The notes: generated by a model from the letters alone, not told the origin. Positions 7,262-61,561 are shown, counted from the first letter of the stretch. The stretch: 64,000 nt of DNA from a virus (IMGVR_UViG_3300026484_000382:10702-74701), one strand, 5' to 3'. Program-made: numbers and translations.

Positions 7262-7357
7262 ATGAAAAAGATGCATAAACTAAAAAGAGTTTGTAAAGTT
7301 AAAGTAGAGAAAACAAAAAGGTTTTTAAAGACCTTTAATTGGAAATGTGAATTTTAA
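7262..7357 (+). CDS. 31-aa cationic micropeptide B (MKKMHKLKRVCKVKVEKTKRFLKTFNWKCEF)
   Basis: AGGA SD; shares KLK..C, VK, KRFL and FNWKC with peptide A. Confidence 0.7.
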   Translation: MKKMHKLKRVCKVKVEKTKRFLKTFNWKCEF

Positions 7358-7893
7358 TATCCATTTTCCTCTCTGTTTTGTCTAGCTTTGTAAACACCAT
7401 ACCCACCTGCTAATGTTAGAGCACCAGCCCCAATACCAGTCTTTATTTTATTCTCTTTCATCCAGTTTAAAACACTATTACCTGATTTAGTTGTAGTATC
7501 TATATTTGTATTGTATATCTTTTGCTTAAATCTTTTTCTTTCTTCTGCTTTGTTTTTTAATTTTTTGATAGAAATAGGTGTTTCATTGTTAAGGTTAATT
7601 TCTTGTTGTATATTTTTAACTTCAGGTGTTTCTTTTTGTGATGCCCTATATTGATCTCTTTCTGCTTTAAACTTTGTTTTAGACCCCTGTCCAGAAATAT
7701 GTTTTAACTCTTTATGTTCTTCTGGGGTAATTAAACCATTTGCTAGCATTTCATCTAGCTTTTTGTGTAATTTGTTTTGTTTCCCGTTAAATTCATTACT
7801 ATTAACAAAATCCATTATAAACTTATTATTACCGAATCTATCTTTTATTTTATTATAATAAGCCGTTTTAATTAAGTATTGTGTTGCATTCAT
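7354..7893 (-). CDS. KxA-leader protein (MNATQYLIKTA) with C-terminal Gly-rich hydrophobic helix
   Basis: Leader motif; C-terminal TGIGAGALTLAGGYGVY; A-run AAGGA SD. Confidence 0.7.
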   Translation of the reverse strand: MNATQYLIKTAYYNKIKDRFGNNKFIMDFVNSNEFNGKQNKLHKKLDEMLANGLITPEEHKELKHISGQGSKTKFKAERDQYRASQKETPEVKNIQQEINLNNETPISIKKLKNKAEERKRFKQKIYNTNIDTTTKSGNSVLNWMKENKIKTGIGAGALTLAGGYGVYKARQNREENGY

Positions 7894-7920
7894 GTTTTTC
7901 CTTTTTTTTTATTTATTATA

Positions 7921-8349
7921 CTAAAGATTGTTTATTGTTGCAATTATTTTATCTGCATCTTCTTCTGTTAATCCATTGTCTCCGTTAATATGATAGAAAT
8001 TTGATTTGTTTATATAGTTGTGTTTTTCTGAACATATGTAAGTATCATCATCATCAACAACTAAAAATTTATCTATATTATATTTTTTAATTGTATTTTT
8101 TATTTGCCCACCTTTTATAACATGAGTATCTAATGTTGTCCCTATTATTTTATCTTTATTTTTTAAAGATGAATTTAATAAGATTTTTTGTACTTCATAT
8201 TTTAGAGATGAATGTATAATAACATTACTATTAGTTTTATCTATTATTAAATTTAATAATTCTAATTTTGAATTTACACTATTTAAATCGTTATTCTTAT
8301 GTGGCAATATAACACCATCAAAATCTAAAAACAATATTTTTTTATACAC
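7921..8349 (-). CDS. HAD-family protein (Swiss-Army-Knife RNA-repair HAD_SAK_2-like)
   Basis: FLDFDGVI, IHSS, VVDDDD and GLTEEDA motifs. Confidence 0.8.
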   Translation of the reverse strand: MYKKILFLDFDGVILPHKNNDLNSVNSKLELLNLIIDKTNSNVIIHSSLKYEVQKILLNSSLKNKDKIIGTTLDTHVIKGGQIKNTIKKYNIDKFLVVDDDDTYICSEKHNYINKSNFYHINGDNGLTEEDADKIIATINNL

Positions 8350-8429
8350 AACTAAATCCTTTTTTTCTAGATTTTAACATTTTTTTGTTATTTAGTAAAT
8401 TATTTTTGTGTTTATATTAAAAATAATAT

Positions 8430-8458
8430 TTGACTAACAAAAAATAGTAAGTTATAAT
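8430..8458 (+). promoter_or_regulatory. Sigma70-type promoter of the structural operon
   Basis: TTGACT, 17-nt spacer, TATAAT, then A-run AAGGAT. Confidence 0.7.
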
Positions 8459-8479
8459 AAACAAAAAAAGGATTTAGTT

Positions 8480-8902
8480 ATGCCAACTATTTCAACAATG
8501 TTTGATAAACCATTAGAAGAAGATATTGCTTTAGAAACAAAATCTACTTCGGCTTCTAGTATAGTTGATACTTTAAAAAATGCTGAAAACACATATAAAG
8601 CATTTTTATATTTAAGAGCTATGTATTCATTGTATCCAAATAAAGAAACAATACTTAAAATGGATACAGTTAAAAGTGATGATTATGTAGAGATAGATAA
8701 ACCTGTTAATGCAAACAGAATATTTGTGGTTAATACGGGAGATGGTAGTTGTTACATTAAATTTAATGATGAAGAGTTTGAGATTGTTGCTGGGAAAGAA
8801 TATGAATTTCCTGTTATTCCTAAAACAGATGAAAATGATGGTGATAAAGTTGAAGTTAAAGGAACACTTTCCTATTACATGAAAAACGTACAGGAGTTCT
8901 AA
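8480..8902 (+). CDS. Putative virion structural protein, paralogue of 8904..9311
   Basis: Shares FDxPLEED and LKNxENxYKAFLY with the next gene. Confidence 0.6.
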   Translation: MPTISTMFDKPLEEDIALETKSTSASSIVDTLKNAENTYKAFLYLRAMYSLYPNKETILKMDTVKSDDYVEIDKPVNANRIFVVNTGDGSCYIKFNDEEFEIVAGKEYEFPVIPKTDENDGDKVEVKGTLSYYMKNVQEF

Positions 8903-59232: not shown

Positions 59233-59314
59233 TCTCACTTACTTTCTTTCCTTCTTTTTTTTGAATTCATTTATGTTATAATATGATTAAAAATAAATTA
59301 TTAAAGGATAATGA

Positions 59315-60076
59315 ATGAATTCTATTTCTTTTTTATACAAAAAGGCTGACTTTTATGAACAACAATCCAACAGGGAATTACCCCCTATAAACATAACTCC
59401 ACAGGAAGAAAAACAAAGTATTTTGCAAAACATTAAAAATAAATTTAATAATGCAACCGATCTTGTTGCAACAAAAACAAAGAATGGAATATTAAAACAA
59501 CAACTTAAAGAACAATCTGATAATGCTGACGAATGGAAAAGTAGACATGCAAATGTATTTGAGGAGCTAAATAAAACAAAAAGTTCTTTGGATGACTTAG
59601 AAGCTTCTAAAATGGAATTAGAGGCTAGGCTAAAAAGACAGATTGGGGCATTAAGAAGATTAAAACATGAAGATAAAATTCAAAACAAACAACAAGTTAT
59701 GGCATTGGAAAATCAAATAAATCATTTATCAGGTCAAATATCTGCTCACTCAAAAACTATTTCAAACTACAAACAACAATTAAAGTCAGCAGAGGAGATT
59801 ATTAATGATAATACTCAAGATATAATACAGAAAGAAAATACAATAAAAACATTAAAAACAACTCTTGATGGACACAAAGAAGAAATAGTTGGTTTAAATA
59901 AAAGATTGGATGAACATAAGAACACTATAGAAGAGCTAACTAAAACTCTTGGAAAAACAGAAACTTCAAATAAGTATCTTAAATGGGGAGCAGGAATTGC
60001 TATCCCAACAGTAGGAATGGGAGGATATTTAATGGGTAAATCAAGTAATTCAACAGGAGGAAATAATGCTAACTAA
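59315..60076 (+). CDS. KxA-leader coiled-coil protein (MNSISFLYKKA) with C-terminal Gly-rich anchor
   Basis: Long heptad repeat; WGAGIAIPTVGMGGYLMG; overlaps the protease start. Confidence 0.7.
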   Translation: MNSISFLYKKADFYEQQSNRELPPINITPQEEKQSILQNIKNKFNNATDLVATKTKNGILKQQLKEQSDNADEWKSRHANVFEELNKTKSSLDDLEASKMELEARLKRQIGALRRLKHEDKIQNKQQVMALENQINHLSGQISAHSKTISNYKQQLKSAEEIINDNTQDIIQKENTIKTLKTTLDGHKEEIVGLNKRLDEHKNTIEELTKTLGKTETSNKYLKWGAGIAIPTVGMGGYLMGKSSNSTGGNNAN

Positions 60077-60731
60077 ATACATTGACGGAGATGCTTACTT
60101 AGTAACGCCAGCACATGCTAAACATTGTAATGGTAGTTGTGATTGGTTACAAAAAGAAGCTAGTGTAACACCAGAATCAGTACATTTTTTTGACAATTTA
60201 AAACCAAAACCAGACCATGTGTATCTATTAACAATAGCAATGACAGCAGGAGAATTTTTTGGAGCTAACAAAAATGGAGACTATTTTAGAGAACAGGATC
60301 TAAAAAAATATTACAAAGATTTTAAAGGTGCTGGAGTTTTCTGGAATCACGACAACAAAGATATGAGTAAATCAAGTGGAAAAGTTATTGAGGCTTTCTA
60401 CAATGAACATATGCATAGAGTTGAATTAATTATAGAGTTCCATAAAGATAAAGCTAGATATATTCCTAGTTATATAAAAGATAAAAAACCTATAGCAGTT
60501 TCAATGGGATTAAAAACATCATCGGAAGTATGTTGTATATGTGGTAATGTTACAAGAAATAGTTATGCTACCAGATGTAGTCATCTTAAATATCAAATGA
60601 ATCAAGTTCTTGATGATGGAAGAAAAGTTTATGCCATAAGTAATACACCTCTTAAGATATTTGATATTTCCGTTGTCTTTAATCCAGCTGACAGAACTGC
60701 TTATACTTTATACACAAAATCAGGAACTTAA
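60066..60731 (+). CDS. Prohead maturation protease (HK97/assemblin clan) with Cys/His insert
   Basis: NKNGDYF, WNHDN (putative catalytic His), VSMG (putative catalytic Ser), CCICG...CSH and FDISVVFNPAD; LQKEA-S near the N-terminus. Confidence 0.8.
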   Translation: MLTKYIDGDAYLVTPAHAKHCNGSCDWLQKEASVTPESVHFFDNLKPKPDHVYLLTIAMTAGEFFGANKNGDYFREQDLKKYYKDFKGAGVFWNHDNKDMSKSSGKVIEAFYNEHMHRVELIIEFHKDKARYIPSYIKDKKPIAVSMGLKTSSEVCCICGNVTRNSYATRCSHLKYQMNQVLDDGRKVYAISNTPLKIFDISVVFNPADRTAYTLYTKSGT

Positions 60732-60754
60732 CCTAAAAAAAAGAACAGGAGGGA

Positions 60755-61036
60755 TTAACCCACTAGGGTCATTGTCCCATCCTCATTCAGATTATAAACG
60801 ATGCAATCGTTTATATCCTGCCCTTTTTTCCCTAACAATACTTTGAATTGGGCTTCTTTTGCCCCACTCCATGTTAGGTTTGCTGGGTCTATTGACGCCA
60901 GCGTTTCCCCTTCAGTGGTGAAGATAGACCATTGCCCATCTTGCACCCTTACTCTGAAAGGGATTGGATCTCCCCATGGAAGTTGCAATTCTGCAACCCC
61001 CATAGAGGAGAATAATTTTCTGTCAACTGCTGCCAT
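60755..61036 (-). CDS. 93-aa hypothetical protein with atypically GC-rich DNA
   Basis: AAAGGAG SD before the ATG at 61036; antisense to its neighbours. Confidence 0.6.
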   Translation of the reverse strand: MAAVDRKLFSSMGVAELQLPWGDPIPFRVRVQDGQWSIFTTEGETLASIDPANLTWSGAKEAQFKVLLGKKGQDINDCIVYNLNEDGTMTLVG

Positions 61037-61129
61037 TTTTTCTCCTTTTTTTTTGGATTTTTCGGCTATATATATATAACCCATTAAGTAAGTTTTTTTT
61101 GATATAATAATACAAAAAAAAGGATTACA

Positions 61130-61561
61130 ATGAATGCAAGTGATTTTATTAAGGTGGCTTCTAACAAAGATGTAGACAAAAGATATGACATAAATCCATA
61201 TGATATAGCAGAGTTAGCAGGAGCCGTAGGTACGGTAGGTGGAGCAGGCTATGCTGGATATAATCATATTAAAAAACACAATAATAGGGAAACTATTAAA
61301 GAAAATATGTTAGAAAAAGCTTTAAAAGACAGTTCTGACAAAGAGAAAAAAAGCATTATGAAAGCTATTGAACAAGATGCTGAAGATTATTTTAAAAATA
61401 AAACTGAAAATATTTTAAACTCATACAAAGCCTCTGGGGTTGAAAAAGAATTTAAAGATTTAGCACAGAGAGAACATGGGTTACCAAAAAAAATAGCATT
61501 AGGAAGTATGCTTGGTGGAGGTGCTGTTATGCTTGGTTCTAATTTAATGAATGACGAATAA
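61130..61561 (+). CDS. KxA-leader protein (MNASDFIKVA) with two Gly helices
   Basis: AGAVGTVGGAGYAG and GSMLGGGAVMLG; own TGATATAAT promoter. Confidence 0.7.
   Translation: MNASDFIKVASNKDVDKRYDINPYDIAELAGAVGTVGGAGYAGYNHIKKHNNRETIKENMLEKALKDSSDKEKKSIMKAIEQDAEDYFKNKTENILNSYKASGVEKEFKDLAQREHGLPKKIALGSMLGGGAVMLGSNLMNDE

Follow-up and report, generated by a model that had tools for sequence, protein, structure and literature searches.

Why should a set of small phage proteins built around glycine- and alanine-rich helices begin with what resembles a signal for processing in the phage head? The question is raised by a 64,000-nucleotide stretch of viral DNA (IMGVR_UViG_3300026484_000382:10702-74701), the whole of which is termed the window here and which forms the final 64 kb of a 74.7-kb viral contig; coordinates are window positions unless marked as those of the contig. 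A first-pass annotation had listed eight such open reading frames (ORFs), all of which were found on translation to exist with the starts given for them. Seven of the eight open with a 10-12-residue leader ending in [LIFY]-x-K-x-A, the exception being 44297-45352, which has internal sites (Table 1; plus-strand ORFs are cited below by their first coordinate). The interpretation we favour, as having slightly better than an even chance, is that these are internal head cargo of a contractile-tailed phage, targeted, processed, retained and ejected in the style of T4, with helices that may engage the inner membrane of the host.

The link between the leaders and the head lies in the other proteins that carry the motif. 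The head maturation protease has an L-Q-K-E-A site of its own at residues 28-32, of which K30 and A32 are invariant in an alignment with its relatives, even in one only 42% identical, and the major capsid protein has two N-terminal sites, LIKAA (16-20) and LLKQA (26-30), the latter kept in all relatives. Scaffold- or core-like proteins have five to six sites each, as against mostly a single N-terminal copy in the Gly-rich proteins. Since this dichotomy is the pattern known from T4, a cargo with a processing signal was accepted as the best reading of the latter, and the proteins are probably head cargo bearing a head-processing signal. The attribution of such a signal in the first-pass annotation is thus upheld, the motif being common to the capsid protein, the protease and the scaffold- or core-like proteins, and analogues of the cargos being found in particles of a cultured relative. 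Processing by a host Prp-type protease or signal peptidase was considered and rejected, given that the conserved site is present on the protease of the phage itself. The protease had no solved match when compared with the PDB sequences, singly and as a profile, at E values up to 10, and the identity of the capsid protein was taken from a PDB profile match instead of an AlphaFold2 model built with nine relatives (pLDDT 40).

The motif is concentrated at protein N-termini. Within the first 16 residues, [LIFVMY]xKxA is found in 14 of 101 genes, where its internal rate predicts 2.3, a six-fold enrichment, and segments that are uncharged, at least 14 residues long and at least 20% Gly occur in 8 of these 14 leader genes but only 7 of the 87 others (Fisher p = 6e-5). 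The association recurs in G002 (L021), a relative of 161,461 bp with direct terminal repeats that is rated complete, where such segments are present in 4 of 16 leader genes and 9 of 219 others (p = 0.007). Two proteins outside the original list, 45370-45777 and 55376-55621, belong with the leader-bearing set; the former has orthologues in G002 (52% identity, leader MGLLHKIA) and in Salmonella phage Arash (gp221). In 44297-45352, the internal sites DLVKQS|S and LIVKTA|G fall at about residues 110-127, and the G002 orthologue retains an internal site (ILKQA). At 11866 and 53329, the ATG starts were chosen in preference to longer ORFs, as each has an extended -10 box and an AAAGGAT ribosome-binding site a short distance upstream. 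The mature forms of the cargos are cysteine-free, with Gly and Ala contents 2-4 times those of the proteome, and an isoelectric point (pI) of 8.1-10.0 in six of the seven leader-bearing ORFs, that of 61130 being 6.3.

Table 1. Leader-bearing ORFs, head-processing proteins and other features discussed in the text (window positions)
Position	Strand	Length (aa)	Feature	Details
7354..7893	-	179	Cargo candidate	Leader MNATQYLIKTA; single C-terminal Gly segment TGIGAGALTLAGGYGVY (residues 152-168); mature pI 9.8
11866..12303	+	145	Cargo candidate	Leader MRSFNLIKTA; Ala/Gly segment 24-41; charged spacer; Gly/Ala segment 123-139; mature pI 10.0
37656..40853	+	1065	Tape-measure candidate	Position downstream of tail sheath gene 32109-34247
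42983..43354	+	123	Acidic protein	Five motif copies; candidate prohead-core or scaffold-like substrate
44297..45352	-	351	Multi-helix Gly-rich protein	About six segments; no N-terminal leader
45370..45777	-	135	Leader protein	Leader MSYLEKIA; one Gly/Thr-rich uncharged segment (16-30)
48924..49328	+	134	Cargo candidate	Leader MRAFDLIKTA; segments 30-44 and 112-126; mature pI 9.3
49416..49877	+	153	Cargo candidate	Leader MNSKSYFLFKTA; segments 18-40 (43% Gly) and 135-150
50635..51570	+	311	Major capsid protein	Profile match to PDB 6wkk_A, phage G gp27 major capsid protein, E 5e-8
51647..52600	+	317	Scaffold candidate	Adjoins capsid gene; six internal [LM]xKxA sites; orthologues in relatives
52799..53329	-	176	Cargo candidate	Leader MRSFYLIKTA; Gly/Ala segments 25-38 and 64-77; shorter Gly-rich stretches towards C-terminus
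55376..55621			Leader protein	YLEKKA; 16% Gly; no segment passed filter
55997..56494	+	165	Acidic protein	Five motif copies; candidate prohead-core or scaffold-like substrate
59315..60076	+	253	Cargo candidate	Leader MNSISFLYKKA; long coiled coil; C-terminal segment WGAGIAIPTVGMGGYLMG (224-241)
60066..60731	+	221	Head maturation protease	phrog_18299, E 1.2e-11; conserved His95 and Ser146
61130..61561	+	143	Cargo candidate	Leader MNASDFIKVA; segments 29-44 and 122-137; mature pI 6.3

Two of the cargo genes flank that of the protease, 59315 lying directly upstream and 61130 just downstream. Beyond the leader, an architecture of Gly/Ala helix, charged spacer and C-terminal Gly helix had been proposed for five proteins. 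This holds for 11866, 48924, 49416 and 61130, in which N-proximal and C-terminal uncharged Gly/Ala segments of 14-23 residues (11-43% Gly) enclose a charged spacer, but not fully for 52799-53329, where both segments fall in the N-terminal half and the C-terminal part has only shorter Gly-rich stretches, seen in the translation. As described previously, 7354-7893 and 59315 have just the C-terminal segment, and 44297-45352 has about six, two of which pass the filter with the remainder identified by inspection of the translation; an AlphaFold2 model of this protein from its single sequence was all-helical with a pLDDT of 40, and unusable. Homologues of 48924 keep the leader and both helices around a variable spacer, and in near relatives the Gly segments are 94% conserved, compared with 89% for the rest of the protein (p = 0.014), which points somewhat to selection on the helices.

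The description of these segments as membrane helices went too far. They are only marginally hydrophobic, with mean Kyte-Doolittle hydropathies of 0.8-1.8, and on a rough 19-residue sum over the Hessa translocon scale they score +4 to +8, well short of the -6.5 to +1.6 of the classical transmembrane (TM) helices of the same genome. The Sec machinery would therefore not be predicted to take them as TM segments, a polarity compatible with proteins soluble enough for packaging. Nor do the proteins appear to have Sec signal peptides, a possibility rejected, in agreement with the first-pass annotation, as by inspection and hydropathy their first 16-25 residues are without a hydrophobic core; acidic residues are often found ahead of the first helix. 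The term 'glycine zipper' is only partly apt: Gly-only spacing at i+4 is not enriched in the genome, but spacing of Gly, Ala or Ser is, modestly at i+4 (z about 2) and clearly at i+8 (z 3.3-4.5), which fits a small-residue helix face. With hmmscan at E values up to 10, none of the eight cargos matched Gly-zipper_Omp, Gly-zipper_YMGG, Gly-zipper_OmpA, Rick_17kDa_Anti, YtxH or DUF883. Lys/Arg and Tyr/Trp residues border the segments, several of which are located at the extreme C-terminus in the manner of tail anchors.

These properties bear on the best-surviving alternative, which we consider rather unlikely: that the proteins are packaged and processed but their helices are unrelated to membranes, serving instead for packing or oligomerisation inside the capsid, as part of basic DNA-associated or core-forming internal proteins like those of T4 or the phiKZ inner body. 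Such a role would account for the basic character of most cargos (pI 8-10), though not for the acidic member 61130, and it accords with hydrophobicity far below that of classical TM helices, with the lack of enrichment of Gly-only i+4 periodicity and with the failure to match any Pfam membrane or glycine-zipper family. It explains less readily why the segments are uncharged, of 14-23 residues, bounded by Lys/Arg and Tyr/Trp like the interfacial ends of TM helices and often C-terminal. Nor does it explain why the tape-measure candidate, which had no family match of its own in profile searches, includes at residues 109-134 a hydrophobic, Gly-rich segment similar in character to the helices of the cargos, tape-measure proteins being ejected towards the membrane. 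As a separate observation, the tape-measure candidate starts MNDNFMNDPYMMMMMMQ, a six-Met run, and Arash gp4 has a similar start (MADNMFSQSPMSSYYGFG) together with a 40-residue Gly-rich segment.

The cargos are difficult to relate either to each other or to characterised families. Two pairs, 11866/48924 and 49416/61130, had been considered paralogous, and the strings quoted in support are indeed present, but the statistics are weak. BLASTP among the cargos detected no paralogues, with E = 18 for 49416/61130; Smith-Waterman z scores among them of 3.4, 4.6 and 5.0 include the first pair (3.4) and the second (4.6); and hhalign aligned 11866 with 48924 at 91% probability over columns 1-53 only, that is, the first helix together with the shared leader. 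A word search of 5.8 billion proteins with 48924 and a full HMMER search with 11866 returned near-identical relatives only, and therefore neither a deep alignment nor a family name could be obtained for the cargos. Among ESM Atlas look-alikes of 48924 there were only unnamed viral clusters, below 0.9, while Pfam and PHROGs searches of all cargos at lax thresholds gave coiled-coil noise and no named family. For 59315, these searches produced Pfam XhlA (E 0.0048; at 17.5 bits, short of the cut-off of 34.7) and phrog_1193 (XhlA/haemolysin; E 1.7e-4), in which coiled-coil bias is obvious, as well as a weak match to an Rz-like spanin and many to tape-measure proteins and tropomyosin. Profiles like podovirus gp14/gp15/gp16 or gp7/gp20/gp16 were not matched, except for a weak hit of 52799-53329 to phrog_22637, 'pilot protein for DNA ejection' (E 0.043).

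More can be learned from relatives of the phage. The contig has a GC content of 28%, and IMG/VR holds relatives with capsid proteins 58-70% identical to its own; judged from G002, it would represent about 47% of a genome of roughly 160 kb, and the half not captured probably contains more genes for cargo. A contractile tail is evident from the tail sheath gene (phrog_279). Although blastn with the structural genes found no match among cultured phages, a protein-level search with the protease did identify cultured relatives, in Arash (OQ632216), which is the closest at 44.8% identity, phage G and cluster C mycobacteriophages.

No orthologues of the Gly cargos were detected by BLAST in G002, yet it has a leader-plus-Gly set of its own, implying rapid turnover of cargos within a retained architecture. 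This set includes a 423-aa fusion in which a leader and a pair of Gly helices are joined by way of an internal LFKIA site to a coiled coil and a terminal Gly helix, and a cluster of four small Gly proteins with leaders that flank a 1616-aa protein (102410-107260). The latter has eight Gly-rich segments, with L-x-K-Q-S|S sites recurring after several of them, and can be read as a giant polyprotein form of the unit made up of site, Gly helix, charged spacer and Gly helix. From such comparisons, the unit appears in relatives either as separate genes or as polyprotein strings.

Arash provides a further comparison, having homologues of the capsid protein (gp226; 8e-47), the protease (gp222; 1e-41) and the sheath. 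An [LIVM]xKxA motif is present on its capsid protein, its protease and multi-site proteins, and also in Gly/Ala-helix proteins, at the N-terminus of gp95 (MSLHKLA) and internally in gp213 and gp224. Its gp97 (record 55924-57243), with about six Gly/Ala helices and five [LM]xKKA/LKKEA sites between them, looks like a polyprotein. All four of these proteins were detected by liquid chromatography-mass spectrometry of gradient-purified Arash particles, with unique peptides/spectra of 24/1060 for Gp097, 5/406 for Gp095, 8/222 for Gp224 and 7/143 for Gp213, compared with 30/1333 for the capsid protein (PMC10585845). In the virion data gp97 is among the most abundant proteins; like gp95, gp213 and gp224, it is annotated simply as a 'structural protein', and the motif, processing and helices are unremarked in that study (PMC10585845). 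These data are supportive of packaging rather than decisive.

The functional class is probably that of the T4-type capsid-targeting and internal-protein systems, of which this would be a new variant, on the basis of a shared propeptide consensus and a phage-encoded protease. As in the T4 capsid-targeting sequence (CTS), IPI, IPII, IPIII, Alt and gp21, a short N-terminal propeptide ends in the protease consensus, and a single consensus serves for capsid protein trimming, shredding of scaffold or core and cargo (PMC5694885), which for the window is judged from motifs. In T4, internal proteins lose only a targeting peptide of 10-20 residues while gp22, gp67 and gp68, proteins of the core, are shredded, and its cargo, like that of the window, is variable, mostly basic and lineage-specific (PMC5694885). 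The motif itself differs, being hydrophobic-x-Lys-x-Ala in place of Leu/Ile-x-Glu, and PHROG, Pfam and PDB searches found no sequence relation of the cargos or protease to T4 internal proteins, Alt or gp21. Unlike the T4 internal proteins, which are not known to contain Gly/Ala-rich uncharged helices, the cargo of the window is dominated by them.

The view that membrane-type proteins carrying a head-processing signal are unexpected was overstated, as there are precedents in SPN3US gp47 (PMC5694885) and the T7 gp14-like core proteins (PMC8954989). The former is an ejection protein processed by the protease, the mature form of which has a predicted TM helix and is proposed to contact the host membrane (PMC5694885), and injected phiKZ cargo associates with membrane-derived vesicles early in infection (bioRxiv 10.1101/2024.03.24.586471). 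These SPN3US and phiKZ-like ejection and inner-body proteins resemble the proposed cargo as head proteins that are processed by the prohead protease and ejected, but their propeptides are mostly >100 residues with an A/S/G-x-E motif, in contrast to the short K-x-A leaders of the window; furthermore, SPN3US has one TM protein where the window has an expanded set of small Gly-helix proteins, with no homology between them. The podovirus proteins gp14/gp15/gp16 of T7 and gp7/gp20/gp16 of P22 are likewise internal to the capsid, have predicted TM helices (four to five in the T7 gp14-like core proteins) and leave the head to build a trans-envelope channel (PMC8954989). They differ in belonging to short-tailed phages, in which the tail is too short to span the envelope, and in lacking a shared protease-site leader. 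A literature search for glycine-zipper virion or ejection proteins found nothing relevant. Two things are new here: the Lys-x-Ala motif, and a cargo dominated, in a clade with a cultured phage, by small basic Gly/Ala-helix units that are encoded singly or as polyproteins.

On the reading that we favour, an N-terminal propeptide of 7-14 residues ending in [LIFY]-x-K-x-A(/S) would direct the cargos into the assembling prohead, where it would be removed by the Ser/His head maturation protease, as suggested by the shared and conserved motifs. The same enzyme would trim the N-termini of the capsid protein and of itself, and would cut scaffold- or core-like proteins at five to six sites each. The mature proteins, which are free of cysteine, mostly basic and 12-27 kDa in mass, would be retained once the head is filled, since all except 44297-45352 are without a strong internal site; their analogues in the Arash virion preparation are consistent with this. 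Because the Gly/Ala-rich helices are too polar for Sec-type insertion, the proteins could remain soluble in the capsid. More speculatively, they may exit through the tail with the DNA at infection, and the small-residue faces of their helices might then pack to give oligomers engaging the inner membrane of the host, for instance by helping to make or seal a passage for the DNA. The functions previously put forward, as conduit, vesicle, internal lipid structure or pore-forming effector, are speculation in which none is favoured over another; an internal lipid layer was rejected, as nothing suggests it.

Several points weigh against this interpretation. Cleavage, packaging and ejection are predictions for the window phage, and insertion of the helices into a membrane is a proposal rather than an established property, given a hydrophobicity far under that of ordinary TM helices and weak strict zipper spacing. 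Two Gly-helix proteins of the contig (genome 1508-2602 and 8439-8993) have no leader. The Arash 'virion' list comprises 116 proteins, including ribonucleotide reductases, such that its specificity is low, and coverage values near 100% in that proteome give no evidence of leader loss (PMC10585845); moreover, the Gly proteins of Arash have no detectable homology to those of the window and are analogous only. Finally, a start cassette copied under three of the leaders could have spread the motif without function, although the other leaders differ in DNA.

This cassette consists of the ribosome-binding site and first codons (AAAAAAGGATTAACA ATG AGA AGT TTT ...), which are common at the DNA level to 11866 (11851-11895) and 52799-53329 (53300-53344) and, less exactly, to 48924 (48909-48953). 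More generally, 9 of the 14 leader genes have their own copy of an extended -10 box (TGnTAnAAT) around 21 nt before the ATG, including 7354-7893, with its TAGTATAAT box 21 nt ahead. This spacing implies very short 5' leaders. As the same type of box also heads structural operons, the promoters are consistent with late expression without being specific to it. After the box, of which there are examples at 7915-7923, 48892-48900 and 61100-61108, come an A-run and then an AAAGGA ribosome-binding site, an arrangement that heads most operons.

Duplication of the cassette would be one source of the shared N-terminus if the proteins were unpackaged constituents of the infected-cell membrane, such as holin- or XhlA-like lysis factors, superinfection exclusion proteins or tethers between prohead and membrane; alternatively, the leader might then allow their release or inactivation by the protease. 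We regard this as improbable. The upstream DNA and leader shared by 11866, 48924 and 52799-53329 fit such an origin, but the leaders of 49416, 59315, 61130, 7354-7893 and 45370-45777 differ in both sequence and DNA, and the motif not only is common to the scaffold, protease and capsid protein but also persists in orthologues that are 36-52% identical. Similarly, the weak matches of 59315 to XhlA/haemolysin, below the cut-off for Pfam XhlA, and to an Rz-like spanin, along with the tail-anchor-like C-terminal helices, have to be set against segments too polar for efficient insertion by Sec/YidC, the position of the cargo genes inside the head module and the high spectral counts of the analogous Arash proteins in particles. 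Compositional coincidence, whereby Lys-rich, AT-biased proteins yield K-x-A by chance and Gly-rich stretches are low-complexity linkers without a common function, is very improbable and already disfavoured, for although the proteome is Lys-rich, AlphaFold2 gave no confident fold and cargo similarity is weak, it leaves unexplained the N-terminal enrichment, the association of leaders with Gly segments, the conservation of both in relatives and their recurrence in G002 and Arash.

A wider proposal, which we put forward tentatively as possible but doubtful, is that small, basic, leader-tagged Gly/Ala-helix proteins constitute a widespread and as yet undescribed class of capsid cargo, soluble in the head and self-assembling in the inner membrane after injection. 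There they might provide contractile-tailed phages with a DNA passage or its gate, or else make the cell temporarily permeable or depolarised; Lys-x-Ala would serve as both loading and cutting signal in the clade of the window phage, Arash and possibly the relatives of phage G. If injected, membrane-active cargo of this kind does exist, its members are candidate parts of the DNA's passage through the inner membrane, or early host-takeover factors. They would thus touch on how the genomes of contractile-tailed phages cross the inner membrane, and on the roles of unannotated small head proteins in large phages. The leader would also, like the T4 CTS, offer an easy way to have foreign proteins loaded into capsids. 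With Arash in culture and mass spectrometry data already in existence, a direct test of the prediction is possible, and even should the helices be unrelated to membranes, there would remain a new protease and targeting motif and a catalogue of cargo for an unstudied phage clade.

Other genes in the vicinity have features of their own. Around 6 kb before the start of the window, contig 4687-5115 encodes a 142-aa protein with an N-terminus like that of type IV pilins or pseudopilins (MEKRSFTLIELIFVIVIIGLLAAVAVPK), which is unusual in a phage. Adjoining the cargo gene at 7354-7893 are two small, paralogous-looking ORFs (6295-6522 and 6912-7253), the N-termini of which are alike (…IAKIIRRDK…C.S…R.AHH and …IWRAKIIRTQKECLICSS…RAAHH) and which may be remnants of HNH-type endonucleases.

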